Origin: an uncultured Planctomycetia bacterium
GTDB lineage: Bacteria > Omnitrophota > Gorgyraeia > Tantalellales > Tantalellaceae
NCBI GenBank assembly: GCA_964565425.1
Contig: CAZMEZ010000002.1
Coordinates: 13,953-77,952 of the forward strand
Length of the DNA stretch: 64,000 nucleotides
Reading direction: 5' to 3'
A program made the translations under genes and the position numbers. The notes under the pieces are model-generated. The model was not told the origin of the DNA. It ran no database searches and saw only the letters and a list, made by a program, of their open reading frames with translations. Each line of letters opens with the position of its first letter. Position 1 is the stretch's first letter. Shown one piece after another: positions 33,324 through 62,002 of the stretch.

Positions 33324-36300
33324 ATGCTGAGAGGCAGCAAACTTTTTAAGATAATATCCATAATAGTACTTGTCATTTTCGTCCATGAACAGGTCGGCTG
33401 GACTCAGGACGGACGGCCTGTATGGACTGCTTTTCGTGCTTCAAGTGAAATAACCCCCAGAGATCTGCCGCGAGGCATAAATATCCCTCATGATATCGGC
33501 GACGTCAGCGAAACCGTGATGAACGGTTCAGGCGAAGTCGTGATAAATATCCAGGACGCGCACGCGTCCTTATCTTCCCAGTATTCCATAGTTAACATCC
33601 TCGACAACCTCGTATCCAATTATGACGTTAGGCTCATAGCTCTCGAGGGAGCCGAAGGGGTAGTCGACACTTCGCTCCTCAGGACCTTCCCCGATAAAAG
33701 GGTAAGGAAAGAGACGGCGGAGTTCCTTATGAAAGAGGGCAGGATGAGCGCCGGCGAGTTCTTTGACGCGACGCGCGACGAGAACGATGTGGTCCTCTGC
33801 GGCGTGGAAGATGACGCGCTATATAACAGGAACGTCGAGAGCTTCCGCGGGATAATGGACCGGAGGGCGGCGTATTCCGAAGAGGTCGATAAACTCCTGG
33901 CGCAACTTGACGCCTTGTCCGCGAAGGTTTTTTCTCCCGGACTCAAGACCCTGGAAGAGAAGTCCAGGCTGCACAGGGAAGGCCGAATGAGTTTTTCGGA
34001 TTACTGGGAGAACGTGCGCCCGGTCGCCGAGAAAGAAGGTGTTTCCTTCGAAGGCCTCGCGAATACCGGTAAGTTGCTTCGCGCCATAGCGCTGGAAAAG
34101 GACATAAACTTCGCGCGCGCGAACCTCGAAAGAAAACAGCTTATCGACGCTCTCAGCGAGGATATGGACCGCACGGATATAGAGGACCTGGTCCTCAAGT
34201 CGCTCCTTTTCAAGGAGAACAGGATATCACAGGCCGATTATCACGCCCATTTGAGCCGGCTTGCCGCCTCTTACGGCGTCGGCATGGAAGGCTACGGGAA
34301 CCTGATGGCCTTCACGGAATACGTCACATTGTACGAAAGCATAGACATAATGGCTCTTTTCAGTGAGTTCTCCGCTCTGGAAGAGAGGATCCGCGAGGCG
34401 CTTTACCGTAACGGTGACGAGCGTGAACTTCACGGCTGGATAAGGCTCGTCCGGATGGTCGGGAACCTTTATAACGTGGAACTCTCGAACGACGACTGCG
34501 CGTACATAATGAGCCGCAGGAAAGATTGCGACGGCGCCGGGTGCGCCGGTTTCATAAAAAGGGCATGCCTTAAATACGGCGTTCCCATAGAAGGGGGGTA
34601 TGACGCCGGGCATGTATTCTCCGGCGTGGATGAGGCCCTGGGATTCTACGAGGTCGCCGAATCCAGGAATAACGCTCTCCTCGCGAACACGCTGAAGCGC
34701 ATGAAGGCGGAAGGAAAACACGTGGCCGCGCTAATAACGGGCGGGTACCACACGCGGGGCCTCACCGAGCTCATGCGCAAGAACAAGCTTTCTTACCTCG
34801 TTGTCGTTCCCAGGTTCGAAAAGGACAAAGAAAGGCCGTATATCGCCATACTCACCAACAAGAAAAAACCTTACCAGGAACTTCTTGAATCCGGTAAATA
34901 CCAGCTGGCCGTGAGGGCATATTTCGACGGTATGGACGAGGATAAATTCATCGAAACGGCCATATACGCGCTTTCGAACGTGGTCACGGGCGGCGGCGAC
35001 TGGCGTTACGAAGCGGAAAGATGGTTCCGCGAGTATTCGCGCGAATACGAACGAAGGAAAGGCATTTCGGAAAAAAGGATAGAAGGAAGTCTCTCACCGG
35101 GCGAATTCGCCAGGATACTCGGAGTGGGAGACTACGCGGGTCAAGGGCAGCTAAGGATCGAAACCTGGGAAAACACCGTTGTGGTGGCCAGGATCAAGGA
35201 TGACCAGGTCTCTTATTTCCGTTTGGACCGTGGCGAAGGCGGCGTACTGGAATCCCCCCGGGTACTGTCGCCTAGCCAGGGTCGCAAGATCCTCGCTGCC
35301 CTTGACCGTGCTAAAGCGGAGATAGAAGAGGAGCGGACGGCAGGGCGCGCCGTTGACCTCGAAAAAAAGATGGAAGGCCTGGCAAGGGCGATCAGGGAAG
35401 CGTCGGAAAAGAAAGACGTCACGCTTGCCGAAAAGCTCATGGAAGATAACGGCCTCCTCTACAGGGTCGTGGACAGGTTCGTTCACGCGGACGAGGTGAA
35501 GCCGGAAGATGTGGTCAAAAAACTGAAGGCCGACCCCGGCGTGTCGCTCGCGAAAAACTGGCGCGCCGACGAAGAGAACAGGCAGGCCGTGGCCGTGTTC
35601 GTGAACAGGGTCATCGCGGCCAGAGAAGGCGTCCGGGCGATAATCGACAAACTCACGTCGGACAGGGATTTAGCCGAAACCATAGCATTGTATTTTGTGG
35701 CGCTGAAGAAGGAGATAACCCCGGAAGGCGTCGCGACAGCCTTGCAATACAAGTTAAATGACCACCTGATGCGTGAGAGAGAAAGAATACCGTCGCTGGA
35801 GGATGCCATCGCAAGGTTCACGGAAACCGTTAAGAAGGTTTACGGGCCCGTAGAAGAAGCCAGGGACCGGTTCAGCCGCTGGCGGATCGCCGACAAGGGC
35901 AGGTATTCCGGCACGGTCTCCAACCTGGAGCTTGCGCTGGGCGATATCGCTTGTGCCGGAGGAAAGGATCTCGAGGAGTATGTTGAAAGGTTCAACGGAA
36001 CGGAGGAAAGACCCGTTCGCGCCCTGGAACTTGGTTCGGGACTCTTCTGCCCGATCTCCGGTTATCTTACAGGGAGCATCGAACAGGACATGTTCGTAAA
36101 ACATGAAGGCGGGTTCAGGAACATGGAGGTCGCGGCTCTCGATCCGCGGCAGGATACGGACGAGGAGCTGGGATTGTACCGCGGCAACGCCCTCAAGATG
36201 GATATGTTCGCCGACGGGGAATTCGACTATATATTCGCGTTCCAGGTCTTTAATGTCGAATGTTTTACGCAGTATTTTCCCGTGAACGTGAAGTTCTGGG

Positions 36301-39300
36301 AAGAGAATTTTCCGAAGGAGATGCTGAGCGAGGGGAAGTATTACAGGAAGATAGCGAAAGAACTATTCAGGGTCATGAAGCCCGGCGGCGAGATATACAT
36401 GAACGTGGGGCTGGCGGAACCCAACCTCCTTCTCAACCGTGTCCTGAGGGAAGAGGGTTTCGAGTGCGAATACTCTGACAATAGAGGGACGAACTGGGTC
36501 TTCACGAAACCGTCCGGTAAGGAGACGCCGCTCGAAAGGCGCAGGGAGCTGACGAGGAGGGCGATAACACGCGTGGCGGGGTTTCTGGGGCGGAAGATAG
36601 CCGTTCTGGAAAAATATTTCGCGGAACTGCCGAGAGAAGGAGATCTCGATGAAGAACAAGCCGAAGCGGCGGAGATGCTGCTTGATGCGTGCTGGGATAT
36701 CGTTAAGGGTGTAAGGCAAGATGATCTGTACGTTCCTTATTCCCCGGGACTGCAGCGTCTTCTCGGATGGGGGTCCCCCGGACACATATACGATATACCC
36801 GGGAACATGATATCCCTTACGGCTTATCTCCAGAACATAGTTCATGGCAAAACCGGGGAGATAGCTCCTAATGTTTACGCAGCCATGGCCGGGGAGATAT
36901 CAAATTTGAAATATGCGTTGAACGCTTTGAAGGGGACCCGTTCGGAAGATATTTATTTCTTCAAGCCCGCAGGTTATGACAAGGAATTCGTTAACATCAG
37001 GAACTGGGAAAAATCCCCGCCGCTCCATTCGAAAGAATGGGTGGCGTATCTTTTCGCGACCGGGCGGGAGGACTTGCTCAAGCGGGTCGAATTCAACGAG
37101 GAAGCCAAGAAAGCGTTCGACAAGTATGTGCTTTCGGCTAACGTTTTCAGCGACATGGTCCGCTCCGGCGGACTTGAGCCCGCCGAGGGCGAAGAAGAGA
37201 TGTTCGAGAGGGTGAAGGGATTCCTGGCGGAGACGGACCCGCGAAGGATTGAAGAGACGGGTAACTTCGCGAGGGTCAGGATAGCCCGGCGTCTTTCGGA
37301 GGAACGGGGAACGGGTATAATGCCTTTCGCCGGACCCTCATGGAAAAAAACGCCGCTTTACGCGGCCGCCGCCGGCGCGGTCCTCTCACTTGTTTCCGTT
37401 CTCGCGTTCGACGCCAACGTAGCGGGGGCGATAGCGGCGGGTTTCGCCGCGCTCACGGGTCTTTACGCCCTGGGTTTCTGGATATGGAAGGACCTCATAC
37501 TCGGCCGGGTGAAAAGCGGTAAACTTCAGTCGGCCTTCTACGGGCGCGGCGGGAACGAGACCATTTACGCTCCAGATAAGGTCGTCCGGGAGAGAGTAGC
37601 CGTCCTTTTCAACGAGCTTTCCAGGTCGCTCGCGGGAGGACGCGCGAGCAAAGGGTCACGCGCCCTTGCCGGCACGCGGATCGACGTCGAAAAAGGCCCG
37701 GCCGAGGCCGTCCTGGTGGACGAAAATTCCCCTAAAGAGGTCAAAGAAGCGATCGGGGACGATTACGCGGCTTTCGACAAGGGCAAGAACACGCTTTATG
37801 TCCTGGGGACGCTCGCGCGCGCTCCGGACTGGGTGCTCGCGACAGTACTCGCCCACGAAGCCGCGCATCATTTCACTAAGAGCGAGTTACGGGCAAACCT
37901 CTTTACCGCCCTTAATTTCAGGAAGGCCGTAAGGACCGCGCGCGGCCTGAGCTATACCCCGGAAGATTACCGGATGTACTCCTTATCAAGGGTCCCGGAC
38001 GTCAAGGCGGACGCCCTCCGGAAGAGCCGGCTCGCTGTCCTCCTGGCGGAAAGGATGAAGAAAGAGGGATATCCCGTAACGGATGACGATATAGCGCTTG
38101 TCGGCCGGGTTTTCCTGGTCCATGCCGTGGGCGGAGAGCGATATCCCGGGATAACACTGAAGATACTTGGGGACGCGAATGCCGATATCACGGACGAAGC
38201 AAAACAACTTGTAAGGTTCCGTCATTCCTATGCCGCTTTTACCGATCATCTTGCGCGTGCCGGCGAGGAAGAAATTTCCGTGGATGTCCTGGGTCGCGTT
38301 AATGAGCTTTTGCCCATGATCAGGCTGGTGGACGTTTTTGATGACGGGCAGAACAAATTAAAACGCGAAAAGCCCGGCAAGCAGCCGGAAAATTTCATCG
38401 AGGCGCTGAACTCGCTGGAGGAGACCTTTGCCGAAGAGGGGATAACCGCCAGGGGCGCCCTGAACGTTTTCAGGAATATGATGGGCGAAGAGGACCGGCG
38501 CATCCTGAACATAGCCGCGGAAGCCCGGAGGTCCAACGATATCCTTGTCTCGGACCACGTGCTCATGGATACCATGACGGGAGGAGAGAGGCTGCTCAAG
38601 ATGCGGGGAGGGCTCGATAGGGACCGGGGCGAGGGTGAATATGCCGTCATGACCTTCAGGATGGGGCTCCCGGAAGACCTGCGCAGGCAGATCAAACATT
38701 ATCTCGAGAACAACGGGTTTGACGTGGTGAGCGCCGGCATGACGAGCCGTCATATAGGAATGGACGAGGTGCTCAGGCGGTGGGGAACTGCCGGAGAGAT
38801 CAGAGAGACGCTCGACCGGATCGAAGCGGACGGAGTAAATATTCTCGAGGGTATGATAAACCTTGTCGCGGGGGATGGGGCGGGATTCGAAAAATGGGTC
38901 CGCAAGATCGAACAGGAACATCCCGAGACCGGATCCGTAAAGATGCTCAGGTTCTACATGAACGCGTTTGACCGCGGCATAGAAACGGTAATAATAAGGG
39001 CCCGCGTTCCGAGGGAAAGGCTTATCGAGGAATTCAACGCCCCCGCGAAGGCCGCCGGCATGAAGTTCCAGGATTTCTTCAGGCAGTTCGTCGCAGGGCA
39101 TGAAGACGCTTTTAAGGCCAAAGCGGGGACCCTGAGGGCGGAATTCATGGAACCGGAGCTTCGCCCGAGCGGCAAGCTGGCCGGCATATACAGGATGGGG
39201 GAAAAGCTTATCCCGCGCGAAAAGACAGGCCTTGCCAACGGTATAGACTGCCCGGCGTACTCCGAACTTCCCGGGAACCTTAAAGAGTATATTGAAGTCC

Positions 39301-42300
39301 CTTTCAGGGCCCCGATCATTTCGTCGGTTCTTGCCAACGGTATCAGCGGCGGCCTTCTTTTGGCGGCATACGTGTTCTTCAAGGGGCCGGTGTTGAAAGG
39401 GATATCCTTCATATCTAAGGCATTCTTTGCCGCGGTCATCATAACACTTTTCGCGGTATATTCACCGTCGAGGCTCCGGGCCCAGGAGACGACAGCGGAT
39501 AAAGGCAAGGACAGGACATCCGCTACGGATAAAGGCGACAAGCCCGGCAAAAAAGAGACCGATGGCGGAGAAGGCGACGGGAAAAAGACCGATGAGAAGA
39601 TCAAAAAAGCCGCGGCCGAGGAACTGCCGCTCAGGGACAGGAAAAAGCAAAGAGAGGTCCCGGCCGGAACACTGGTAAAAGCCGGTGATCTTATAGACGT
39701 TATCCTGGACTTTACCGACGCGGAGAGGGCTCCGGAATACCGCGGGAACGTCAAGTTTCTCCTGCTCATGACGATGATGGTCGAGAGCGACCAGTTCGCG
39801 GCGCGCCGGCAGTACAACGGGGGCCCCGCGCGGGGCCTGGCCCAGTTCGAACCGCCGACGGCGGCGGACGTCCGCGATTATATCAAGAGAAAGTCCGCGA
39901 ACAAGAAGTTCATTGAGGCCGTAAAAGGGGTTTTGGAGATCGGCTGGGAAGACAATATCGCGGCGATGTCCGGTGGAGATATCCTGGCAGCGATAAATGA
40001 AAGGATGACGGGCTTGGATGAGAGGATAAAAGCGGCCCAAAAGGAGAACGACGGGAAGAAGGCCGTCGGGATATCAAGGGAAAAAATAGACCTGGAAAAA
40101 GCCGTTGAGGGCGCGCTCGGCAGGGACTGGCAGGAAGAGCTTGCCGCTCTGGCGGGTGAAACAGCGCTGGAGAGGATACGCGCCCGGCTGGCGCAGCTGG
40201 AGAGGGAGATCGAAGCCGCCAAAGAAAAGGACGACAGAAAGACCGCGTCCGAGAAGGCGGAAGAAAAAACGGTTCTTGAAAGGGAAATGGAAAGGATCTT
40301 CCGGATAAGCTGGGAGGACAATCTTCTGGCGATGTCCCTGGAGGATATACGGAAAAAGATAGACGCGAGGGTCGCCGCTCTCACCGAAGAGATAACCGCC
40401 GCCGAGAAAGCGGGCGACAGGAAAAAGGCGGGAGAGAAGAAAAAGGAAAGAGCGGCCCTGCAAAGCATACCCGCCACAAGAGGGTTCAAGACCTTTATCA
40501 GAAATTACAGGTTCAGGATAATGATGGTGAAAACGCTCGGTGCCGACTGGAGCGCCGTATGCACTATGAGCGGCGACGAACTCGGCCGGCGCCTTGTCGC
40601 GAGCGACTTCTTTACGGCCCTCATGAGCCGGATCAATTACGCGAGGAGGCCCCAGCTCGTTCCTTCAAGAAAGGACCGGAAGGCCGTCTGGCGGTATTAC
40701 CTGGACACGTGGAGGCCGGGTAAGCCGGTTTCGCTTGAAAAGTTCCTGCAGCTTGCCGCGATCGTAGATAAAAGCGGCGTAATAGCGGGGAAAAAGGAAG
40801 AAGCCAAACCCGCCGCCGGAGTGCCCGGGGAAAAGAAAGAAGCCGGAAAAGAAGCCGTTACGGAAGCCGGACACGTTCCCGGGAAGAAGCCGGCGGCCGA
40901 GGAGATAAAGATAGCCGAACCGACTGCGCCTGTCGCTCCTCCGGAAGAAGCCCTGGAGGCGGCAGAAAAGCCGGCAAAAGAAGTCCCGGTGCCGGAGGTG
41001 GGAGCGAACATATTCATCCGCCTGTTGGCCGTTTTCGGAGGCGTTTTGGCTGTGATCGCCGGATTTTTCCTTGGAAGGTGGGCCGGCAGGCCGCCCCTCG
41101 CCAAACTCAAGAGATTCGCAAAACGGGCGAAACCCCGAAAAGTGCTGGAGATAGATCTCGGTAAGGACCTCCTGCAGGATAAGGAAATGATGAAGGTGCT
41201 GGCCCGTTCCGGCCACGAGATATCTATCGGCAGGATACCGAACACTTACCGGTATATCTTCCAGAAATGGGAAGAAGACGTCGCCTCCGGTGTTTTTGTG
41301 AAGTCCCTGGGACGGGAATATCCCGATTACAGGTTCGAGGGTCATACCCATTCGCCGGCCAGGACCCAGCTGGAATGGAACAGGATAAATATCCCCAGCT
41401 ACACGGATCTCATGTTCGGGATCTCCGGCCAATGGAGTTACATAATATCCGAAAAGGGCCTGACCTGGTTCAGGGCCGACAGGGGCCTTCTCGAAGTGTT
41501 CCGTGAACAATACGACGCTTTTATCCGGAAAGTTGAAACCGGGGATATGACGCCCGGGGAGGTCGTGACCGCGATGCGCGAGCGGTTCGAGGTGGACGTG
41601 GAGTTCGAGGAAATGGACCTTTCCTCCGGAGTAGCCCGCGGCCCCGCCGCGGCTATGCCTCTGAAAGAACTTATCGCGCCGGATGTGCCGTTCGATGATT
41701 ATGCCGTCAAGCTCGCTCCGGTCGCGGAGGAGATCCTTTTCTTCGCCGTGCCCATGGCCCTGGCGTATCTCGCCCTCGGGATCACCAGCATCTGGACGCT
41801 CGCGTTCATGGCCGCCATGCGCGGCGCGTTCTTCATGCTGCACCCCGAAAAGCGCGACATCATGACGATGAGCGTGACGGATATGGTATCGCTCATCGAT
41901 CCTTCGTACGGCGAACTCAGGAAACACGTTTATGCCGACTGGAAGTTCGTCCGGGCCCTGGCGAAGGGCATGGGGATAAGGGAGGACAGCGAGGAGATGA
42001 AGATGCTTCGCGTGATATCGATGGTCCACGATATGGGAGGCGTTCTGGGGCTCAAGCACGATGAGGATATCGAAAAAGAACTTATCGTGAAAGCGGCGCT
42101 CCACGGTATCGATCACCGGGGAATGGACCCGAACGACGTGGAAGCGGAACTTCTGAGAAAAGGCGTGAAACTCACAAAAGAGGAAAAACGGTTCCTCCCC
42201 AATATTGATCATCCCGCCAATTCATTAAGGATGCTCGATAAGATGGGGATCGCCGTACCGCCTATCGTAAGAGGAATAGTATTAAGACACATGGATGCCC

Positions 42301-45300
42301 CGTCGGAGGAAGAGCTCAGGACCTGGACGGAACAGGAAAGGCGTCTCTTTGCGTGTTTCGTGATAGCCGATGTCTTCGAAACGGGTAACAATTACTACAA
42401 ACAGGCGGGAGGATACTATAAGCACGAAGGCAAATTCGAGTCTATCGAAGATACGTTGGCTTTCATAAAAAGCAAGCGGTTCGATAACAGGCCGTCGATA
42501 AGCCGGTATATCGAAGCGGCGGAGAACGTGCTTTCTTCGGAAGCCATGGCGGAAGCGATACGCTTCAGCCGGACGCCGCTAAGCGGAACGGAATTCGCGA
42601 AAAAGATCATGCCGCGAGGCCCGCCCGCGAGCCGGATAGTGCCTTTCAGCGTAGCCGCGATGGGGGCAGTCATACCGGCTATCCCGGTCATGTTCCCCGC
42701 GATCGCCGCCGCGCCCGGGCTGTTCATACTGGCGGGTTCGATCTGCGTGGTGATGTTCCATTCCTTCGGCAACATCATCGCCGTCATAAAAGGCGTCATG
42801 CCGGCGGCGATAAAAAAGAAAAAGAGATCCGAAGACCTTGAGTGGATAGACCTATACGCTGCCAAATTACAGGCCGAGGGATCTCCCGGTTTCGTTCATG
42901 GGGCGGTCAACAGCGAAGAGGATATAAGGACGATAACGACTATAAGCGGAACGCCGGTCGATGAAGTCAACCGCCGAGCGCAGCCCGGGAATTACTCTAT
43001 GAGCGGGTTCGCGGAGGATTTTATCGAACAACTGGTATCCGACAACGGGCTCGTCCGCGGTTTGGGCACTAACCATAAGAAATTGGCGGATCTGTTGAAA
43101 AGAGCCGCAGGAAAAATAAAAGACGGCGGTGAAGCGACCTTCAAGCATAAAGGCATGCGGTTCGGGATCAGACGGATACCAACAAAGGGAAGCCAGAATT
43201 CCATTTTTGCAGATTATGGTTGGAGCTGCAGTTATCGTCTTAGAAACTTGGACCAGGGGACCAGTATACTGTTCGCCCCTAATTCCGTCGCCGAAATAGA
43301 ACGACTGGGTTTTTACGAGGCCGGGACGATAAACGGCAAGGAGAACAAGTATGCCGTTGATCCCGAGCTTCTCTGGAGGATGTTCAACGATGTCGGCTAT
43401 CGAGTTTCGGAAAAAACGGAGGAAGAAGCGCTGCGGGACCAGGCGGAAGCCATAAAAGAAAAGGAGGGATGGGATTCCATAGAGGTCTACGAAGTTGACG
43501 AACTCAGGGCCGAATACCCGTATATAGTAAGGGAAGCGCCAGCCGTGTCCCGCGGGAAAGTTCCCTTCTATGCCGAGATGGAAGAAGGTTATTACGGAGA
43601 GCCGCCCGTACGTTTCGCGTATGAGGTCAGAAAGAAAGGGCCCTGGACGGCCGTAGTAAGGGTGGAGATATATGAAAGGGACGCGGTCGAAGAAGATACG
43701 GGAATGCGGGCGAGTTTCTACAGGCACAGCCTGCATCTTTTTAGGGGCAGAGAAGATCTGTTTTTGGACGAGTCGTATTCCCTGGACAGTCTCGGGGAGA
43801 AATACGGGACCAATATAGCCGAGATCCTGCAAAAGTCGGGTTTTCCCTTCCGAATCGATATCGGTCCCGGAGAAAAATGGTTCTACGACGAGATGATGAA
43901 AAAGGATGTCGGAACGTTGATGCGTCTCGGTGTCCTGTGTTCGCTTCGGTCGGGCCTTTATACGGATACGCTTCGGGACAGTATGAAGATAAAGCTGACC
44001 AGGGATATGTCGGACTCGAGAGGCTTATTGTTCCGGTATTATATCGTCCCCGTTGAAAATGACGGGACCATGGAATTCGTGGCTTTGGAGCGGCAGAGAG
44101 ACCTGATCTTTCGGGCTCTGTCTGAAAAGACGGGTGGAATGCCGACAGCCCCAGGCACAATATTTCTCTTAAAGGAACTTATCGCTCAGCGCATGTCCTT
44201 CGCCGAATATGCCGCCAAAGTCGCCCCGTGGGTGGAAGAAGCGGTCTTCCTGGCCCTGCCGATGATCATATCGCATTTCGCGTTCGGCCTGGCAAGTTTC
44301 TGGACGGTAGTATTCATGGCCTTATCGCGCGCCGTATTTTTCTTCCTGCACGAAGGCGCGAGGCCCCATGCGCCACCGGCGCTTTGGGAGACGCCTTTAA
44401 AAGTGGCGATAACGGGTTTTCTCGTATCTTTGATGCCCGTGGCCATATTCTCGGCATTAACTTCATCCTTTAACCTTTATCCTTTAACCTTTATCCTGGC
44501 GGCCACATTCCTCTCCGGCCTGATACACCTCCGCGAGAACATCGCCGCGCTCAAGAAAGGCGTCATGCCGGCGGCGATACCGGCGGGCGAAGAAGCGCCT
44601 GACCCCTGGCGGGATCTGACCCCGGACGCGCGCGAGATGTTTACCAATATCGCAAGCAAGGAGTTCTTCCTTAAAGACGCCGAAAGAGGGGAGCTGACGG
44701 CGGAGAGATACCAGCGGGATCACGATGAGGAAGACCCCGAAAGGATACTGGCGCTCTTCGAAGAGCTCGCCGGTAAAGGATATTTCGGTATCACGAAGAG
44801 CGACGACGGCAAGACCAGGTACGGTCTGTCGGAAAAGGGCGGCTCCATGGTCCCGTTGGCCGTCGAAGACATGATAAAGGTATGGATCACGGGTATGAAG
44901 GAGAACGACCTGGCCTGGAGACGCGATCACATAAGGGACCCGGGTTTCGGTTCCATGTTCAGGACGGCGCCGGCATACAAACAGCCCGATCCCGGGAGAA
45001 TGACCCTGTTCGGAAAATACTCCGATGAGGTGCTCGACGTGATCATGGAGCAGGTCAAGGAAGAGGTTAAGCTGTACGAGACGGGCAGGGGGAATGACAC
45101 GGCGTTAAGCGCTCCGCTCGGCGTCATGGAGGGTCTTCTCGAAAAGTGCGGCGATATGCGCCGGACCGATCTGGTCGAGAAGATCGTGGAATACCTGATG
45201 ATGGCGCCTTACTCCGAGAACGGGAGGGTCAGGGCGGCTTTCCAGACGTTCTACATGCATATAGTGGCGATAGATCCCGAACGGGCAAGGACTTTTCTTT

Positions 45301-48300
45301 TCTATCTCATGACGCATTTCGCCGAATTCGGGGACGCCATAAGGGAAACGGACAATCCGGTATTCGGTGTAATGGATTTCCTGCACAGCGCGGGAGACGA
45401 GAACTTCTATTATTTCCTGAGGAGGATATCCGCGTACACTTTCCGGGACCATTCCGGACAGGTCAATGTCGGGCCGAACCATCCGCTGAGATGCCGCACG
45501 AGGTGCGGCACCTACGGTCCGGACCTAGAGGGGGTCATAAGGGATTCCATACACAATAACCTCGGCGTTTACGTGCTGGGCCTCCTGGAAAGGTACCTGG
45601 AATTCTGCGAGACGGGCGATCACGGGATACTCGCCGACGAGAACTACCCGGTGGATGTCTTCAAGAACGACGAATTCCCGTCCCGGGACGCGGTCTTCCC
45701 GGAAGACACCGTTAAACTGTACGCGGTCCCCGAACCGGAGGATACGTATCCATCGAACAACAGGGGCATTATCAGAGAGATATTCGCCCAGCTGGAAGGC
45801 GACCTCGGGCGCCGAATAGGAGCCAGAGGGGAAACAAAGTGGGAAAAACTGAGGAACATTACCGACGAGCAGCTGCAGCTTGTATACGATGCCGTTAACG
45901 CGAAACTGGGGACCAGCATGCAGGCGCAATATTCGGGTTATTCCTTTTCAGGATACATATACGCTTATCGCGAGCTTTCCAGAAGGTACAAGAGAGTGGC
46001 CAGCATAGATACTCTCACCGGCAATCTCTTCGGCGTGGCCGCAAGACACAGGATCGCCAATGAAGCCATAGCCGGCCAGCGCTGGGCCGAAGACGACCAC
46101 CCGGTTTACGAGGCGATAAGAGGCAGCGATCCGATCGCGGCCCTGAAAACGATAACGGGATCGAAAAAGAAGATACGCGACAAGGTTTTCAGCGGGACAC
46201 TGGCGTACGACCGGTACGAGGTCATGGAACAGTTCGAACAGGAATGGGGCAGGGATGACGTGGGCAACGCTTACGGGGGCGCCTGGGTAAGGGACGATCT
46301 CGTAGGTTTATACATGGCTGATAATGTCCTCACCATGGTGCAGAACATGCACATAGAGAACATATCGAAGGAATTCATGGAAATAGACGGGTCGAATGTC
46401 GTAAAGGCCCTGGAATATCTCAGTGTGCTGGCCGAATTGAGTTACACGGAGGGCCTTATCTCCAGGTCCTTCAAGGACCATATCGTCACGCTGCTGGACC
46501 AGAAGGGCCTCGATGTTTCGGTGGCCAGGGACGTCATAAATTTCATGCAGCAGGAATTCGTCGAGATAAGGAATTATATCGTCCAGAACGCCGAGAACTA
46601 TATACACGCCATGCTCGATGCCGAGGGAATATACGGTAAAAAGAGAGAGGAAGAATTCGATAGGAGGCTAAACGGCATTTTGAACAGCGACAGGGTGTTC
46701 CGTTCCGCCAGGGCGCTTATAACCAGGCTCGGCAAGTACGCCGAAACGCGGGAAGGAACGTTCATGGAAGCGGCTACCGCCGAACCGTTCGAAGAAGAGC
46801 CCAAACTCTTCGGGGGTACGGTCCCGGCGGAGACCGTAGAAAAAACCGTTTCGGCCGGAAGGTATAAACTTTCGGCTAAAGGGCTTGAGCTGGCCAGGAC
46901 GTCTCTGGAAGGCATCCCCATACCCGAAGGTGTGATAATCCCGGCGACGGTATCCGATAAAGATACGGGCGGACTTGCCGAAAAAGGCCTGAAGACGCTG
47001 CAGGATCACCTGGACGGGGTCGAAGGCCTGAGGGGCATGAAGTTCGGTTCCGCCGAAAACCCCCTTGTGGTTTCGGTGAGGTCGGGAGCCTACATAGTGA
47101 TGCCCGGACAGATGCCCACGATAGCGAATGTCGGACTTTGCCGTGACACCATGGACGGGTTCACCGCCCGGCTGGTAAAACGCGGCGTGGATCCCCGTGA
47201 CGCGCGGTGGACGGCATGGGATTCGTATTCAAGGTTCCTGCAGAGTTACGCCGTTTCCGTTCTCGGCATAAGCGAGCAGCATTTTGACGCCCGCAGGGAA
47301 AAAATGCTGGAGGACGGGGGTGTGACCGATGTGCGTGAACTTCCGCTTGATAAGATGAAGAGCATGGCCGGCGGGTTCGAAAGGATCATTACCGACATAG
47401 CCGGTGAAGATAAACTGCCGGTGACCGCCGGGGAGCAGTTCAAGTATTGCGTGGAAGCCGTCAAAAAATCGTGGGCCGAATCGATCGATTACCGCGATAA
47501 CGTGGGGATAAAAGGCAAATGGCCGGGAACGGCAGTGATAATACAGCGCATGGTCTTCGGCAACATAAACAAGGATTCGGGCGCGGGCGTCATAAACTCG
47601 CGCATGGTGAACGTGCGAAAACTGGGCCTGGAGGGCGATTTCCTGTGGTTCGGACAGGGGGACGATATCGCGCAGCACAGGGCCGAGGACCTGGTCCAGA
47701 TACAGGATGTCCCGGATGATACGCCATGGAAGAAAGACCTTGAGAAATACGCCGAACTTATCGAAACGTCCCTGGGGACACTGGCCGAGATAGAATTCAC
47801 CGTGGAGCTGGGCAAGGTATACATACTCCAGGTCAGGGACGCTTATGTCGATATAAGGGCTTCGGATTACCTGTTCATTCCTTCAGAAGGAGATCTCCTG
47901 GCCCGCCGGCAGCGGGTCATACCGGCTTCCGGCGGAGCTTACAGGGGTATGGTATATATTCTCCACGGACGCGCGCCCGATATGAGAGAGATAGACCGCA
48001 TGTATAAAAGATCCAGGAAAGCCGGCGGCGACGGCGTGATAATAGTGGCGGACGACCTCGGCCCGGAACAGCTCGGTAAGCTTATAGTCAGGGACGAGGA
48101 AGGGCGCCTTAAGATAGGCGGTCTGATAACGAGGCGCGGAGGGAAACTTTCGCACGCCGGCGATATAGCCAGGAACCATCGCATGGCCGCGATAGCCAAC
48201 GTCAAGGATATAAAGTTCCCGAAGCATGTCAGGAAGAAAAGGAGTTTTATTATAAACGACAGGCGTGTCCAGGAAGGCGAAATGCTTTCCATTTCCGGGA

Positions 48301-51152: not shown

Positions 51153-51224
51153 ACGCAGGGCACGTGGAGTGTGTCTTGTGTATATAATAATAAGAACAAA
51201 TTTGGAGAGAGAAGGAGAAAAATC

Positions 51225-54200
51225 ATGAATAAGCCCAAAAGATCCCCAATCTTTAAGGCAGTAAGCCTTTTTCTGGTGCTGGCGTTCTCATTATACAATG
51301 TGAGCTTCGCCGTCACGCAGGACAATATCGGCAAACCGGATACGGTCGATGTGACCGGGCCTCTTTCGGTAGAGGACATCGGCATAGCGATCGATTGCGG
51401 GACGATAAAGTCCAGGTTCAACGGTGACGCGGACAAGGTCATCGTTCACATCCAGGACGCGCACTGTAACTACGAAGCGCAGTCCAACATAAACAGGATG
51501 CTGGACCAGATCACTAAGGAATGCGGGATAGGCATCATATCGGTCGAGGGCGCGGAGGGGATCGTCGACACGACATGGTTCAGGGCATTTCCGGACGCCG
51601 AGATACGCAAGGAAGTGGCGACTTACTTCATGAAAAAAGGCGAGATAACGGGCGCCGAATTTTTCTCCATAACCTCCGATTTCCGTGGAACCATCTTCGG
51701 GGCGGAGACCAGGGACTACTACGTGAGGAACCTCAGGGCCTTCACGGACGTCTACCCCTACAAGGAGACCATCGAGAACTACTTCACCAACGTGCGGACG
51801 GTAGCCAACCGGCTGAAATCCGTGGTATATCCCGCTCAGCTCAGGGAACTGGACCAGAAGATAAGGGCTTTCGACGATAAGGATATAGAGCTCAGCGACT
51901 ACGCGGAATACCTGAACAAGATGACGCGGAAATACCGCGTGGACCTCAAGGATTGCGGGAACTTCGATAAGCTCACGCAAACGCTGGAATACGAGAACAA
52001 GATAGACTTCGATACCGTCGACCAGGAAAGGAGCGAATACATAGACGTTATCAGCAAGAAGCTGTCCAAGGAGGACATGACGGAACTGGTGACGCAGAGT
52101 ATCAGGTTCAAGAAGGGTCACATAAAAGCCGTTGACTTTTATTCCTATCTCAGGGACCTCGCGAAGGATAACAGCGTCGATATGGTCCATGAATACCCGA
52201 ACCTCTTCTATTACTATATTTACACCAAGCTTTACGACGGGATCGACAACGAGGGACTTTTCAGGGAGATAGACCTTGCGGAGATCCGCTTAAAGGACAA
52301 ACTCTTCAAGGACGAGACGCAGAGGAAACTGGATAAGTATTCCCGCATGGTCGACATGTTCGTCGACCTCACTAACATAGAGCTTACGAACGAGGATTAC
52401 GACACTTTCAAGGGTTATTCCAAGGAATTCTCTCTCGAGGACACGCTGGAGTTCTTCAAGGGGCTGGTCGACAAGTATAACCTGAACTACGCTATCGACG
52501 GACTTCCTGTCCAGATCGGCGAGAACATCCCCAAAATGGTGGATTTTTACGAGATCGCCATAAAGAGGGACAATGCCCTGATAGACAACACGCTGGATCA
52601 GATGAAGAAAGAGAAACAGGACAGGTGCGTCCTTATAGCCGGCGGTTTTCACACCAGGGGCATAAAGGACATACTCGAGAAGAAAGGCGTTTCTTACGTG
52701 GTCGTCACGCCGAAGATAACGAAGAACGTGGACACCCCGTATATCAAGGTGTTGACCAACCAGAGGACGTCGCTCGAGGACATAATCACCGAAAGCGCGG
52801 TCGTCCCCGGTATAGGGATAACCGCTTCGCGCGAGGAGATAGTCCGGCCGAAAGGCGACATGCTGAGCCCGCTCGCGAGGGTGGCGTACACGATACCCAT
52901 GTATCTCAACAAGCCCGGGGACCTGAAGGAACTTTCCGACGCGGTGGGCGCGGTTCAGGGGAGATCCCTCGAGGACGCCGCGGTGGAGTCTTACAAGGAA
53001 ATGATAGCCGCTCTCGTAAGGGGCTGGCTCATGAAGGTAAGAGAGAACGCCGCCCCGGAGGTATGGGCGACGGCCATAGAGAACTGGCATCTCCTTCTGG
53101 GCGCGTATCTCAAGAAATACGAGGAAGAAGCCGCGAAACAGGGCGTCCAGGTCATAGAAGGGCTCCGCGTGCCGGCGGCGATGCTTACGGCGGAACAGGC
53201 GGCGGCGGTAAGCCAGGAGTTCAGGGCTATATTCGAGGAGGAGGTCAAGAGAAGCAAGACCCCCGGCGCCGAAGCCATAAGGCTGGACGACAAGAACGAT
53301 CTTTATGAATCGCTTACGCCCGAGGAGGCCGCGGCGCTCGATGAGGTAATAGCGGGGATAATGTCGAAGATAGATACTACCCGCGAAAGCCGTTTGGCCC
53401 ACACGACGGAGATAATGGTCGAAAACGTCGACGCAAATACGGGCAAGACCGTTAAAAAAGCCATGGAAGTCTGGAAACTCCCGGGCTTCAGGGAAGCCAT
53501 AGAGAAATATAATGCCGCGCACGAAGCGCGGATACCGCTTGATGTGCGAGTGCACCCGGGCACCGGCAGGGGGACCTGGACGCGCATGTACATCGACGAG
53601 AGGGATTTCGCGGCGCTGGACGAAACGCAGGCGCAACGCTTGGCAAATCACGAATATTATCATATACTAAACCCTGATAAGAGCGAGAAGGACGCGATCG
53701 ATGTCCAAAAGGACGACCTCATGGACGTGCGTCTCGCTTTCATAGAAGCGGAAAAAGAAAGACTGAGACTCAAGGCCGAAGAGGAGAAGAGAGTGAAGGA
53801 AGCGCTTCTCACCAATTCGAAAGCTATGGCGGAAGCCGCCGACAAGGGCGTAGGTCCCGACATCGTCATGATCGTAAGCTCCACCGACGAGCAGGCCGAT
53901 TTCTGGCAGAAACGCCTTACCGGCAAGGATGCCGTTCACGGCTCGGGCGAGATCGTGAAGACCGGCGCCGTCGTTCTTTCCGTGCCGGAATCCAACTGGA
54001 AGGGCGGGGCCGGGAACGGTCTGGGGACGCTGAACGGTTTTGTCCAGGCCGCGAGAAAAGCGCGCGACCTGAAACTTATAGATGTCCCGGACGACGCCCC
54101 GATAGAGGAACTTATAAGGGTTTTCATGTTTTATATCAGGGGCAAGAGCTCCTTCATGTTCCACACGGCGGGTAAAGGCACGCGCACCGCGCCGCTTCCC

Positions 54201-57200
54201 GGGGCGGAAGTTAACTCAAAACCCAACATCAAACTTCCCAAGATGGTCGAGGTGGAAGGGAAACGGCAACCGGTCACCATCCTTGAATCGGTCCTAATGG
54301 AGACGAGCATATACGCTCCTTCAAGGAAGAACCGCCTGAGCGTTTTCTGGGGCGACCAGGTGATAGTAAACGAGGAGAACATAGATTTCGGGAAAAGGCA
54401 TCACGTGGAGATATTCGGGCAGAAGGTGCCGCTGGACAGGGAGATCGAGGCGTACGGTGTCCTTATCCCCGGCGAAGAAGGCGATTGCAAACAGAGGGAG
54501 AAACTCGCGCTTGACGACGTGAAGAAGGTGCTTCCCGCCGGCAGCGATGAAGTATACAAGAGCATAGGTTCTTTCACCGTTTCACTCGGTTTCCTGAACG
54601 CTTTGATGAGCATGAAAGAGCACATGGAAGCGCTCAAGAAAGCCGAAGGCAGCCTCAATACCGACCCGGACTGGTGGCAGCCGCTTACCTCTGCGCGTAA
54701 CGAATATATCGAGATGCAGGGCAAGAAAGGCGTCGACGCGAAAAAGGCCGGGGCCCAGTGGGACAGGATGAACAAGTTCTGGGAAGATTTCGAAGGCAGC
54801 GGCGAATACCTGGGAGAGGCCCTGGACCGCAAGATAGGGTTCAACGACGTAGGCCCCAATTCCTACTGGTGGGATTACGGCCAGAATAAATTCTACCTCA
54901 GGAACATGCAGATACTGACCGAGGATTCCATGGAAGGCGAGGCCGCCAGGAACTTCTTCGGCGTCGAGGAAGGCAAGTGGGTGGACGCCTCTTCCGATAC
55001 CGGTGAAGCCGTCATCGAGAACTCGATAGTCCAGAACTCCGCCATAAAGAAGGGGAGCCTCAAGAACTGCGTCGTTATAGACTGCACGCTGGACGAGGTC
55101 TACGCGGAGAACGCCGTTATCATAGGTAGTACTATATTAAAACTTAACGCGGACGGGGCTTTGTGCTACAATGTCGTGGACCATGACGTAAGCCTCCGCG
55201 AAGGTCAGCTTCTTGCGAACATATTCCATCCCGAGCTCGGTCGCTTCGCCATGCGCACCGACACGACCAGGGACGGCCAGACCGATTGGAACGGTAAGGT
55301 ATACGTGTATGATAACCAGTACACCTATCCCCAGGTTTCCGATCTGATGAAGGGCGTCAAGATGGAGGATGTCGAGCAGGCCAGGCAAAACGCGGTAGCG
55401 AATCTCAGGACGACCGACCGCATGAGCGGCGCGGAACTCGCGCAGAGATTAAGCGATGCCAGGGGCATCAGCATCGAGTCGGCGCGCGAGCTTGTGGCCC
55501 GCAGGATGCTTGTATTCGGGGACATCCAGTATTTTTACGACACCACTTATATGGATACATTCGGCGTATCAAAAGACAAGGCAGAACAGGAAGTCGACGA
55601 GGTCGGAATGGCCGGGAAGGGCGTGACGCAGGTTGAGTATAACACTTCGCTTAACGCGGACAACATGGCCGGCCTGGTTGCCAGGCTGGAATCCGCCGGC
55701 GTCCTTAATGCCGTGCGGAAAAAGCAGCTTATCGCGGCTTTGACCTACCGGAAGGTGGAAGACGTGACCGACGAAGACCTCCAGAAATACGTTCGCGCGT
55801 CGGATCTCACCGATCTTAATTTCCTTTTTGACGTTCTTAAGGAGACCGACGCCCTGTACGGGATAGATCTCGCTGAGCTCGGTATAGCCGAAAAGACTCA
55901 AATGGTGGACGTGAGCTTGCCGGAACAAGCCAGGGAAGAAGTCCTGAAGAAGTCTCTTAAAGAAGGCCTCAGGTTCGGTACAAGCGGCCTCAGAGATTTC
56001 GTAGAGAACATGCCCGACGTCGAAGTTTATATCAACACGCGCGGTTTTGTTAAATTCCTCAAGGAAAGAGGCGAGATCGACGGGAAGAACAACGTGATCG
56101 GCCTTGCCGGCGACCTCAGGGCGAGTACGCCCAGGATAATAGCGGCCGTCGCGAAGGCCATAGAGGACGAGGGTTGCAGGGTGGATTTCCAGGGGCTTGT
56201 CCCCAGCCCGACGATCGCGTACTATGCGATGCAGAAAGACATGCCCAGCATCATGGTCACCGGCAGCCACATACCCGAGGTCATGAACGGCATAAAGTTC
56301 ACCAGGAAAAGCGGTGAGGTGCTTAAGAGCGACGAGGACCCGATAAACGAACATGTTAAGGAAGCAAGGGCCGAAGAGTACGCCAAAAACTGGGATAAAT
56401 CCCTTTTCAACGGGCGCGGCATGTTCAACGTCAAACGTCCGGCTCCGGGAGCGAAGGCGGACGCGGAAACGGTTTACGTGCAAAGATATCTCGATGTTTT
56501 TCCGAAAGACGCCCTTAAGGGCAAGAAGGTGGTTTTCTACCAGCACAAGGCTGTAGGAAGAGATATAACCGCGGGAGTGTTCGCCGCGCTCGGCGCGACG
56601 GTCATTATAGAAGGAAGAAGCGAAAAGTTCGTCCCGATAGATACGGAAAAGGTCCCGGATTCCACGAGGGCCCTTTTCAGGGAATGGGCGAAAAAGCACG
56701 ATCCCGATCTTATCATATTCACCGACGGCGATTCGGACAGGCCGGGGCTGGTGGACGAGACCGGTGAATACCTTACCGGCGACTGTCTCGGCGCTCTTGT
56801 ATCGATGTACCTGAAGCCGCAGGCCGTGGGCCTTCCGGTGAGCGCCAATGATGCGGTGGTCGAAGCCCTTAAGGCGTCGGGGATAAAGGTTACTCCTACA
56901 AGGATAGGTTCACCGTATGTTATCGCGGCGATGAACGGTTATCTTGCCGCCGATCCGGACATGAAGGTCGCGGGCTGGGAATCGAACGGAGGGTATCTCC
57001 TGGGGAGCGACTGGACTATAAACGGAAAAACGCTCAAGGCGTTACCGACGAGAGACGCCATCCTGCCGCTGCTGGTAACGGCTATCTTCGCCAAGGAGCA
57101 GGGCGTGAAGATGTCGGAGCTCATAGCGTCCAGATTGCCGGCAAGATACGTCGTTTCGGACGCGGTCAACAACAAGATGGAAGGATGCGAGGCCTATACT

Positions 57201-59968: not shown

Positions 59969-60048
59969 ATATCAGGGCTATATAAAACTTTTATATAATG
60001 GTATTTACGTTAATATAAAAGTTCGTTAAAACGTTATATTACATATAG

Positions 60049-60077
60049 TTGACAGAACAGTTGAATTTTTGTAAAAT
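60049..60077 (+). promoter_or_regulatory. Promoter for the ABC permease operon: TTGACA, 17-bp spacer, TAAAAT
   Basis: TTGACA at 60,049-60,054 and TAAAAT at 60,072-60,077 in an AT-rich spacer, about 55 nt upstream of the ATG at 60,132 (SD taaggtgg). Confidence 0.55.
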
Positions 60078-60131
60078 AAGTTCTCCTGCCTAAGGGATTT
60101 CAGGCTTTCGGTTGAATCATTAAGGTGGTTA

Positions 60132-61040
60132 ATGGAACAGGAATCGTTTTTACAGAAACTTAATAAACAGAAGATCTCCTATCTTTTTATAGCATTACCG
60201 GCGATACTCTTCTTTACATTCCAGCTCGCCCCTGTTTTCATATCCTTTTTATGGTCCTTTACCGAATACGACGTCGTGCACGCGCCCCGGTTCGTAGGGC
60301 TTGCCAATTACAGGAACATACTGACGGGCGACCCGCTTTTCTGGAAGGCCATGAGGAACACGGTATTGTATGTGCTGGGAGTGGTCCCGGTGAGCGTATG
60401 CCTTTCGCTCCTGCTGGCCGTCGCCATAGACCAGAAGATAAAGTTCAGGAATTTCTTTAAATCCATATTTTTCCTGCCCACGGTAACCGCCATAGTGGCC
60501 GTATCGGTCATATGGAAGTGGTTATACGCGGGAGAAAAGTACGGCCTTTTGAACTATTTTCTCCTAAAACTGGGGTTTCGGCCCGTAGACTGGCTTGCGA
60601 GCCCTACATGGACATTGCCTTCAATAATGATAATGTCCATATGGGCCGGGATCGGCTATAACATGATACTTTTTTTAGCGGGATTACAGACCATCCCGCA
60701 TGTCATGTATGAGGTGGCCGAGATAGACGGGGCAGGGTTCTGGACCAAATTTTTCAAAGTGACACTGCCGCTCCTCAAACCCATTATAGTATTCGTCAGT
60801 TTGATGAGCTTCATATTCAGTTTTCAGGTATTCGAACAGGTGTACATAATGACGGGCGATCAGGGCTCAATAGGCGGCGTCTTGAGTTGCGCCCTCACTA
60901 TAGTAGCTTACCTTTACGATAAAGGTTTCCAGAAGTTCCAGATGGGATACGCCTCGGCGCTGGCTTATATCATCTTCTCGCTCATATTCATACTTACGAT
61001 GATAAATAAGCGTCTTATGAGAGCTAACGTGGAGTATTGA
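60132..61040 (+). CDS. Carbohydrate ABC transporter permease, MalF/UgpA family
   Basis: 302 aa with six TM helices. N-terminal FIALPAILFFTFQLAPVFISFLWSFTEYD. Conserved loop IPHVMYEVAEIDGAGFWTKFFKVTLPLLKPIIVFVSLMSF is the EAA motif of BPD_transp_1. Confidence 0.85.
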   Translation: MEQESFLQKLNKQKISYLFIALPAILFFTFQLAPVFISFLWSFTEYDVVHAPRFVGLANYRNILTGDPLFWKAMRNTVLYVLGVVPVSVCLSLLLAVAIDQKIKFRNFFKSIFFLPTVTAIVAVSVIWKWLYAGEKYGLLNYFLLKLGFRPVDWLASPTWTLPSIMIMSIWAGIGYNMILFLAGLQTIPHVMYEVAEIDGAGFWTKFFKVTLPLLKPIIVFVSLMSFIFSFQVFEQVYIMTGDQGSIGGVLSCALTIVAYLYDKGFQKFQMGYASALAYIIFSLIFILTMINKRLMRANVEY

Positions 61041-61068
61041 TACAGCTGTAAGCTTTAAGCTGTAAGCT

Positions 61069-61953
61069 TTGAGATGTAAGTCAAATATCATGGAAAAAGG
61101 GATAATGACACAGGGAATAGGTATCAGGAAGGATCTGTTCACGATAAAGACCTTCATATATATCTTTCTCGTGGCCGGAGCGGTTACGATGGTGATCCCG
61201 TATCTCTGGATGTTCGTAACGTCAATAAAGCCGCTGGAAGAGATACAATCTTATCCGCCCGGTTTTATAGTAAAGAATCCCACGCTGGAGCCGTACAGGG
61301 ACCTTTTCAGGATGATACCCATGATGCGGTATCTTTTTAACAGTCTTTTCGTGGCCGGGTCCGTAACGCTTTTCAACGTCTTCGCTACGTCATTGGCGGG
61401 TTACGCCTTCGCGAAACACGAGTTCTGGGGCAGGGATAAGCTGTTCTTTATATTTCTGGGATCCCTCATGATACCGTGGCAGGTCAACATAATTCCGGGG
61501 TTCGTTATAGTGAAGAAGCTCGGATGGCTGAACACCTACAGGGGGCTCATAATACCATCCATGGCGTGGTGCGCTTTCGGTATATTCCTTAGCCGGCAAT
61601 ATATATACAGTATTCCCGATGATCTTATCGACGCGGCCAGGATAGACGGATGCAGCGAGTTCATGATATACCGCAAAGTGATATTGCCGATCATAAAACC
61701 CGTTCTCGCGACGCTCGCGATCTTTACTTTTTTGCAGCAATGGAACAACTTTGTATGGCCGTTGGTGATCATCCATACCAGCGAGATGAGGACGATCCCG
61801 CTGGCGCTCGCGGTCCTGAGCGGACAGTTCGGCGTCAAGTTCAACATGATCATGGCGGGAGCGGTGATAGCGACATTGCCGATGATCGTGGTTTATATCT
61901 TATTTCAGAAATATATTATAAAGGGTGTCGCGTTAACGTGGCTTAAGGGGTGA
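61069..61953 (+). CDS. Carbohydrate ABC transporter permease, MalG/UgpE family. Start ambiguous: ATGs at 61,069, 61,090 and 61,105
   Basis: EAA loop DDLIDAARIDGCSEFMIYRKVILPIIKPVLATLAIFTF and typical MalG topology. Follows permease 1 after 28 bp. Confidence 0.85.
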   Translation: MRCKSNIMEKGIMTQGIGIRKDLFTIKTFIYIFLVAGAVTMVIPYLWMFVTSIKPLEEIQSYPPGFIVKNPTLEPYRDLFRMIPMMRYLFNSLFVAGSVTLFNVFATSLAGYAFAKHEFWGRDKLFFIFLGSLMIPWQVNIIPGFVIVKKLGWLNTYRGLIIPSMAWCAFGIFLSRQYIYSIPDDLIDAARIDGCSEFMIYRKVILPIIKPVLATLAIFTFLQQWNNFVWPLVIIHTSEMRTIPLALAVLSGQFGVKFNMIMAGAVIATLPMIVVYILFQKYIIKGVALTWLKG

Positions 61954-62002
61954 CGAGTGACGGGTGGCGCGTGACGGGTTACTGTAAAATAGAAAGGGTA
62001 AA

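Follow-up and report, generated by a model that had tools for sequence, protein, structure and literature searches.

What is a cell-wall-cleaving motif doing inside a giant protein of an uncultured bacterium? The window considered here is a stretch of 64,000 nucleotides (nt) of contig CAZMEZ010000002.1 (assembly GCA_964565425.1, positions 13,953 to 77,952 of the forward strand), from an organism deposited as a Planctomycetia bacterium and placed in the Omnitrophota by GTDB, and the protein is the product of its second giant open reading frame (ORF), ORF2, with 5,892 amino acids (aa). A preliminary description had noticed in ORF2 a motif of SLT-type lytic transglycosylases (family GH23) followed by a duplicated helical unit, and had suggested that a peptidoglycan-cleaving domain on a membrane-anchored giant protein could remodel the cell's own sacculus or attack the wall of a neighbour. 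This raises several questions. Is the motif part of a true domain, and of which family? How does the repeat relate to it? On which side of the membrane would the domain lie, and whose wall would it cut? The reading that we consider likely is that residues 2117-2495 form a single muralytic domain of the type of gp42 of Burkholderia phage AH2, carried in a loop of the giant protein, split by three amplified helical-hairpin units and most likely facing the periplasm.

The motif itself is real. The peptide singled out in the preliminary description, MVESDQFAARRQYNGGPARGLAQFEPPTAADV (aa 2152-2183, nt 39777-39872), lies in frame in ORF2 with its Glu-Ser and G-L-A-Q-F-E elements, and the native module around it is matched in two stretches by the PHROGs profile phrog_3108 at E=7.7e-20, profile statistics that rule out a chance occurrence. 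PHROGs lists phrog_3108 as a family of unknown function. The SLT profile (PF01464), which had been named as the check, gives no match at E up to 10 to either the native or the insert-deleted sequence; the sole Pfam signal for the module comes from PF18013 (Phage_lysozyme2), whose 15.8-17.8 bits stay below the 28.2-bit gathering cut-off and cover profile positions 27-77 of 140. Why is phrog_3108 matched in two stretches? The N-terminal piece alone matches its positions 25-110 (E=1.2e-10) and the C-terminal piece alone positions 95-144 (E=2.8e-8), and removal of aa 2206-2404 leaves a single continuous match to positions 25-144 of 160 (E=1.4e-20). The repeat is thus located inside the domain, and the units that had been thought to follow the catalytic domain in fact split it. 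A broad-family hidden Markov model, built with the trimmed window module included, places its positions 62-167 at aa 2386-2482. When five modules from giant proteins are compared by hhalign with 65 family members, the probability is 99.1% (E=1.3e-18), and in a 66-sequence alignment (the window plus the 65 members) the window module keeps all the family-invariant residues: E-S, R-x-Q, G-P-A-x-G-x-x-Q-x-E, D, R, P and W-x-x-Y-x-x-x-W-x-P-G-x-P. The Glu-Ser forms the C-terminus of a predicted helix (residues 23-37 in the modelled segment), with GLAQ after it. By its profile matches the ORF2 domain is assigned to the phrog_3108 family and not to the SLT profile family. What survives of the GH23 proposal is that the Glu-Ser and G-L-x-Q-x-x-x-TA elements align with the SLT catalytic motifs by way of the parent family profile; the membership of PF01464 does not.

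What kind of family is phrog_3108? A search with the insert-deleted construct, followed by a profile search, gathered more than 5,728 clusters (90% identity) of proteins of ~160 aa, mostly from phages and prophages of Proteobacteria. No Pfam domain is present in any of these clusters, a few members carry the annotation 'lysozyme', and the best 120 family matches measure 147-179 aa each. AH2 gp42 is a full-length member (E=9e-74) whose gene lies between the holin gp43 and Rz/Rz1, that is, in the endolysin slot; those who described the phage found gp42 similar to lysozymes by HHpred (PMC3483164). An exhaustive HMMER scan of 1.84 billion representatives returned only 13 relatives of the N-terminal half (the labels L001-L013 stand here for genomic loci of relatives and P0001-P0132 for relative proteins). 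Two of the 13, the mid-sized proteins P0127 and P0132, have Peptidase_M23 N-terminal to the family domain, and P0127 has a weak Phage_lysozyme match at its C-terminus, beyond that domain. Weak matches to Phage_lysozyme2 occur in 12 of the 65 members and to SLT in nine, the best SLT match among them being sub-threshold (E=0.0027). Compared by hhalign with the SLT domains of E. coli Slt70, MltC, MltD, MltE and MltF, the family profile reaches 74-78% probability (P ~2e-5) over 34-37 columns, in which the family ES falls on the catalytic ES (505-506 of the Slt70 precursor, with E505), GxWQ falls on GLMQ, and TA follows. The AlphaFold model of the member P0005 (mean predicted local distance difference test, pLDDT, 96.6) was searched against PDB and BFVD and finds, beyond its own family, almost only lysozyme-superfamily proteins, including phiKZ gp144, Slt, MltF, MltE, goose-type lysozyme, GH19 chitinase, RpfB and phage SLT and tail-lysozyme proteins; all these matches are weak (E of at least 0.17, TM-scores mostly 0.35-0.6). 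Two findings had been named that together would speak against the earlier proposal, a missing SLT match and a missing lysozyme-like fold, and only the first of them was obtained. Four independent lines, none of them an assay (gene position, domain fusion, profile comparison and fold), lead us to read the phrog_3108 family as muralytic, and it is concluded to be a distant, Pfam-less branch of the lysozyme/lytic-transglycosylase superfamily, outside the SLT profile family. LysPA26 was considered as a characterised relative and dropped; it comes from an unrelated phage and is a 145-aa enzyme assigned to the lysozyme-like superfamily cd00442, its predicted catalytic residues being E13 and T28. The very large endolysin family phrog_3108, whose more than 5,700 clusters have neither a Pfam model nor a sequence relative in the PDB, looks under-described.

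The insertion is itself built of repeats. The preliminary description had counted two copies of a ~48-aa unit (~39935-40080 and 40305-40450), and their similarity is genuine, with a Smith-Waterman (SW) score of 106 against 33+-6 (maximum 65) in shuffles. The repeat, however, consists of three tandem units, head-to-tail, with a period of 61 aa or 183 nt, of which the middle one had been missed. All three unit pairs score 91-103 against ~27-31+-5 when shuffled (z=12-14.5), and in register the units are 31-39% identical in aa and 50-55% in nt. Tandem Repeats Finder reports no 183-nt period in the repeat region because the unit copies are old; a weak 37-nt family (D1) at 183-nt spacing is the trace left in the DNA, and otherwise the repeat is visible at the protein level only. 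A possible fourth, 'native' copy is found at aa ~2394-2430 (LGADWSAVCTMSGDELG). It has the common W...MS..(D/E)(I/L) motif, and both copies match profile positions 95-110, although its pairwise scores against the units are non-significant (z at most 1.6); that it is a native copy of the unit is likely from these sequence features, but unproven.

How would the units fold? The native-segment model (pLDDT 76; predicted template modelling score 0.47) shows the repeat region as eight helices of ~17-30 residues connected by turns of 1-4 residues. The pLDDT is 86-97 within units and lower at the unit boundaries, and from these helices and dips each 61-aa unit is predicted to be a helical hairpin. All matches that Foldseek finds for the native model are designed helical repeats or TPR proteins and fall short of significance; they would fit a small array of solenoid type all the same. 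Less trust can be placed in the core of the model, since its MAFFT alignment (A2) put the middle helices of the family on unit 3, with ~30 residues misplaced. A homology search with the native 376-aa segment scored none of 8,000 candidates, which is attributed to the K/E-rich repeat.

Is this architecture found elsewhere? Relatives of the whole module are rare, and every one lies inside a very long ORF. The nearest modules belong to two Omnitrophota metagenome-assembled genomes and one labelled Planctomycetia; a scan of viral contigs found no relative, and a metagenome scan recovered only the organism of L003. The window itself is missing from the collections searched, and an exact-protein look-up with its GH113 gene gave no match. 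The modules differ in the number of hairpin units (Table 1), and that of the window exceeds that of L001 by exactly 122 aa, or 2 x 61. In P0122 the TA helix runs directly to a single 'NKNWNQILSMSADDFGKEL' element, and this insert-free module is presumed to be the ancestral state. The window units reach SW scores of at most 83 with the orthologue units; since they are closer to each other than to those of the orthologues, the expansion to three is lineage-specific. The block V-E-S-D-Q...Q-Y-x-G-G-P-x-R-G-L-A-Q is invariant, along with further positions, across five modules whose identity to that of the window is only 42-47%, which argues for a retained active site, and the residues invariant in the phage family are kept in four of five giant modules. 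In L003 (9992-11599) and also in L007, the first tandem copy is degenerate: it reads GLAQLNP for GLAQFEP, losing the glutamate of QFE, and WDPDPP for WRPGKP, with VESDQ kept. ORF2, P0121 and P0122 have in common an N-terminal '...IQDAH...ALEGA...' region after the signal-anchor helix, and by this sequence likeness look like versions of one giant-protein family. The P0121 gene (L013; GCA_016930235.1, JAFGHI010000010.1) is a stand-alone giant gene amid housekeeping genes for riboflavin synthesis, ribosomal proteins L21/L27 and Obg, with a MamF_MmsF-family gene ~1.3 kb downstream.

Where does the module stand with respect to the membrane? The premise of a membrane-anchored giant protein holds: a Kyte-Doolittle scan finds ~14 hydrophobic segments in ORF2, and those at aa 2001-2047 and 2563-2583 bracket the module, each set apart from it by a linker of ~65-70 residues. 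The loop of the upstream hairpin (2020-2027) contains lysines and no acidic residues, and the 15 residues after helix 2563-2583 include five K/R but neither D nor E. Under the positive-inside rule, the basic loop and the basic flank put the module on the outer side, so that it is probably extracytoplasmic and facing the periplasm. Among the relatives, a hydrophobic stretch after the module is also present in L001 and L003, while P0121 and P0122 have hydrophobic stretches, readable by eye, on both sides of the module; L002 has no hydrophobic stretch in the 80 residues after it. With both ends of the module anchored, an uncleaved domain would reach only the periplasm of its producer. A complete peptidoglycan pathway is present in the Omnitrophota themselves (10.64898/2026.06.07.730766), and a self substrate therefore exists.

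How might such a domain work? Of phage-endolysin ancestry and tethered in the periplasm, it would cleave the glycan strands of peptidoglycan; we infer that it is enzymatically active, by either lytic transglycosylase chemistry, a non-hydrolytic cleavage that yields 1,6-anhydroMurNAc, or hydrolase chemistry. Glu2154 would be the presumed general acid, as in SLT-type enzymes; it ends a helix, and Ser and the GGPARGLAQFE beta region come next. The linkers, presumably flexible, would hold the domain between two membrane helices. The hairpin between the N-lobe and the C-lobe helices would have arisen through internal duplication and, in this genome, would have been amplified to three 61-aa units, giving a small helical-repeat arm that may project from the catalytic core. 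The enzyme would then act on the sacculus around the giant protein, opening or remodelling it, with the hairpin array serving perhaps as a spacer, a docking surface or a gate. Of this picture, the homology, the split of the domain, its three units, their changing number among orthologues and the conserved catalytic motif are demonstrated; activity, chemistry, sidedness, substrate and the role of the arm are inferred.

Several points weigh against this picture. The sidedness is deduced from the positive-inside rule only, the flank directly after TM5 is basic too (four K/R), in mild conflict with an outside placement, and transmembrane predictions for such giant proteins are unreliable according to West-Roberts et al. 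2023 (bioRxiv 10.1101/2023.11.21.568195). The family profile matched no PDB sequence at E up to 10, and no enzymatic assay for any family member was found in the literature. The 'AYNxG' of SLT enzymes is replaced by YYLDTWRPGKP in the window. Finally, the native model is only moderately confident, and that the two halves re-associate around the insert is a presumption.

Could the domain be a bona fide SLT lytic transglycosylase (GH23 family 1) with an unrelated, duplicated helical unit behind it? ES, G-L-x-Q and TA are all there, the parent-family profile puts them on the catalytic motifs of Slt70 and of MltC, MltD, MltE and MltF, and SLT domains are known in some Omnitrophota giant proteins (West-Roberts et al.). 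The downstream motifs of SLT enzymes are a D/E-x-x-N-I...Y-L helix and A-Y-N-x-G; the window has SDFFTALMSRINY and YYLDTWRPGKP, and close relatives have YYN.G. Only a forced global alignment, of just 29% probability, brings the D/N-rich helix and this YYN.G into line with SLT motifs III and IV. Aligned directly by hhalign, the giant-protein modules match the SLT alignment at 5% probability and in the wrong register. With PF01464 silent, the strong match going to phrog_3108 and the repeat lying inside the domain rather than after it, an SLT enzyme is quite improbable. It might also be asked whether the domain is a catalytically inactive remnant with a glycan-binding or structural role, the helical repeat being the functional part, for example as an oligomerisation or docking arm. 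The insert does break the catalytic domain and varies in copy number, and the degenerate one of the two L003 tandem copies (GLAQLNP, WDPDPP) tells that the module can drift; the window copy, however, retains every phage-family invariant residue (E-S, R..Q, GPA.G..Q.E, D, R, W..Y..W.PG.P), and the same residues are kept throughout four of the five giant modules. We regard inactivity as very improbable.

Whose wall would an active domain cut? It could be aimed at a foreign one, the bacterial murein or archaeal pseudomurein of a prey or host, after proteolytic release or surface exposure. The closest relatives of the domain are phage enzymes that lyse cells, and the window, with its SecA-like ORF1, ABC permeases and GH113, fits the Omnitrophota giant-gene neighbourhood, which has been read as serving prey-wall degradation and uptake, with peptidase domains that may cut the giants (West-Roberts et al.). 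Nevertheless, membrane helices tether the module at both ends and confine it to its own periplasm unless cleaved, a Pfam scan found no peptidase domain in ORF2, and Omnitrophota have their own peptidoglycan pathway (10.64898/2026.06.07.730766). An attack on a foreign wall is therefore unlikely, and attack on a prey wall by a released loop is less likely than remodelling of the own sacculus by the tethered, periplasm-facing domain that we favour.

How does this domain compare with known systems? AH2 gp42-type endolysins share with it sequence homology (E ~1e-20; hhalign 99.1%), the same invariant residues and the layout of helix, ES, beta region and helices, at ~30% identity. They are free-standing single-domain proteins of ~160 aa encoded in holin-endolysin-Rz/Rz1 cassettes, whereas the domain of the window sits in a loop of a multi-pass protein of 5,892 aa and carries a helical insertion of ~200 aa (~183 aa of it in the three 61-aa units) that is present in no phage member. 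The SLT lytic transglycosylases (PF01464, GH23) resemble it in the helix-end Glu-Ser, G-L-x-Q and TA, aligned via the parent family profile; they differ in that the window has no PF01464 match, only 34-37 columns align confidently and AYNxG is not conserved. They make up most of the fold-search lists, at TM-scores that stay below 0.5. Similar in setting are the Omnitrophota 'Archaeovorin' giants, which also have a wall-cleaving lysozyme-type domain on a multi-transmembrane giant, SecA-like domains, and transporters and glycosidases downstream. That report relied on Pfam SLT detection, which the window domain escapes, and it describes no endolysin-family origin, split domain or variable hairpin array (West-Roberts et al.). 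An SLT-type wall-cleaving domain on Omnitrophota giant proteins is thus already known from the same work. New is a Pfam-invisible endolysin-family domain in an Omnitrophota-type giant protein, split by an internally derived helical hairpin, with a series of 0, 1 and 3 units among orthologues. The Omnitrophota giants are nearly blank to profile databases, and part of this dark sequence turns out to be a recruited domain of phage-lysin type once the insertion is removed, which gives concrete support to the published idea that the giants handle cell walls. Current understanding is not overturned by a split endolysin-like domain. The occurrence of 0, 1 and 3 hairpin units in one enzyme domain offers a clean natural series for testing the effects of an insertion.

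Is there a precedent for a helical arm on such an enzyme? In PcsB and in EnvC with FtsEX, a peptidoglycan-hydrolase domain close to the membrane is physically joined to a long helical element, which makes them a working analogy for the insert. Their coiled coil is a separate N-terminal domain and relays the movements of FtsEX; the catalytic domain is CHAP or LytM, and an ABC-type partner exerts control. The CC_PcsB match to the window module (E=0.12) is meaningless. By this analogy, the hairpin array might be a copy-number-tunable arm or gate that couples the muralytic site to the membrane-embedded body, a speculative idea that is most unlikely to be right in this form. The predicted unit structure, the position within the domain and the 0/1/3 copy variation would be compatible with it. 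If it were true, wall cutting would be activated only at sites of insertion of the giant complex or of contact with prey, and how far the arm reaches across the periplasm would depend on how many 61-aa units it has.

Table 1. Coordinates of the domain, its flanks and the giant ORFs in the window, and the modules of related giant proteins
Feature	Position in window (nt)	Strand	Residues or ORF length	Remarks
N-terminal half of endolysin-like domain	39672..39938	+	aa 2117-2205	helix ending Glu2154-Ser2155, GGPARGLAQFEP beta region, TA, next helix
Motif of the preliminary description	39777..39872	+	aa 2152-2183	putative catalytic Glu2154 = nt 39783-39785
Helical-hairpin unit 1	39939..40121	+	aa 2206-2266	IGWEDNIAAMSGGDIL...; predicted helices, pLDDT 86-96
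Helical-hairpin unit 2	40122..40304	+	aa 2267-2327	RDWQEELAALAGETAL...; SW 91 and 101 vs units 1 and 3, z ~12
Helical-hairpin unit 3	40305..40487	+	aa 2328-2388	ISWEDNLLAMSLEDIR...
C-terminal half of endolysin-like domain	40488..40808	+	aa 2389-2495	probable second copy of the helix and 'LGADW..TMSGDELG' element, then SDFFTALMSRINYARRPQLVP and VWRYYLDTWRPGKP
Transmembrane hairpin upstream of module	39324..39464	+	aa 2001-2047	Kyte-Doolittle scan
K/D/G/T/E-rich low-complexity linker	39477..39671	+	aa 2052-2116	composition
A/E/P/K-rich linker	40809..41009	+	aa 2496-2562	composition
Transmembrane helix	41010..41072	+	aa 2563-2583	strongly basic flank after (GRWAGRPPLAKLKRF...)
ORF1	1-32976	+	at least 10,991 aa	no stop from first base; open at left edge
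ORF2, host of the module	33324..51002	+	5,892 aa	uninterrupted ORF; multi-pass giant protein; module 379 aa, three units
ORF3	51171-59897	+	2,908 aa	
L001			ORF of at least 6,909 aa, open at both ends	module 257 aa, one hairpin unit
L002			ORF of at least 3,116 aa	module 267 aa, one unit
L003 / L007			ORF of at least 5,601 aa	two complete tandem modules, 236 and 248 aa
P0121			4,658 aa	two diverged module copies
P0122			7,718 aa	one copy, ~aa 1189-1350, without helical insert
P0124			1,229 aa	one module copy

In what setting is the module found? Three consecutive giant ORFs on the + strand fill the window (Table 1). Omnitrophota giant genes have been described as encoding many transmembrane helices and divergent SecA domains, with transporters and glycosyl hydrolases downstream (West-Roberts et al.), and the window fits this neighbourhood in its very long multi-transmembrane ORFs, SecA-like domains and downstream permeases and GH113. 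In ORF1, Pfam recognises SecA_PP_bind (~nt 3958-4314) and P-loop_SecA (~nt 4591-4911), with no further match in the first 10,000 residues. The whole of ORF2 yields two Pfam matches in 5,892 aa, PPDK_N and PEP-utilizers, both near the C-terminus (nt 47022-48308, +). These are central-metabolism domains inside a giant, and ORF3 contains others, the phosphoglucomutase domains I-III (nt 55971-57134, +). Downstream of the giants, nt 60132-63601 (+) encode two ABC permeases (BPD_transp_1) and a GH113 glycosidase with an F5/8 type C domain.

ORF2 contains a second kind of internal repetition, outside the module. A four-helix transmembrane cassette occupies aa 3602-3760 (44127-44603, +), and its halves recur earlier, ~250 residues apart, at aa 2766-2844 (41619-41855) and 3096-3171 (42609-42836), with SW scores of 176 and 108 against ~33+-6 in shuffles. 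The conserved elements of the cassette are ...AP..EE..F.A.PM..., ...FF.LH... and KGVMPAAI, and the hydrophobic stretches of P0122 resemble it by eye only. As to base composition, the guanine-cytosine (GC) content is 0.46 at 60001-62000 against ~0.55 elsewhere in the window. The GC skew is positive in all 2-kb bins (+0.07 to +0.17), and the adenine-thymine skew is positive (up to +0.36) in all bins except 60001-62000; the coding strand is purine-rich, and many long spurious ORFs appear on the reverse strand as a consequence.

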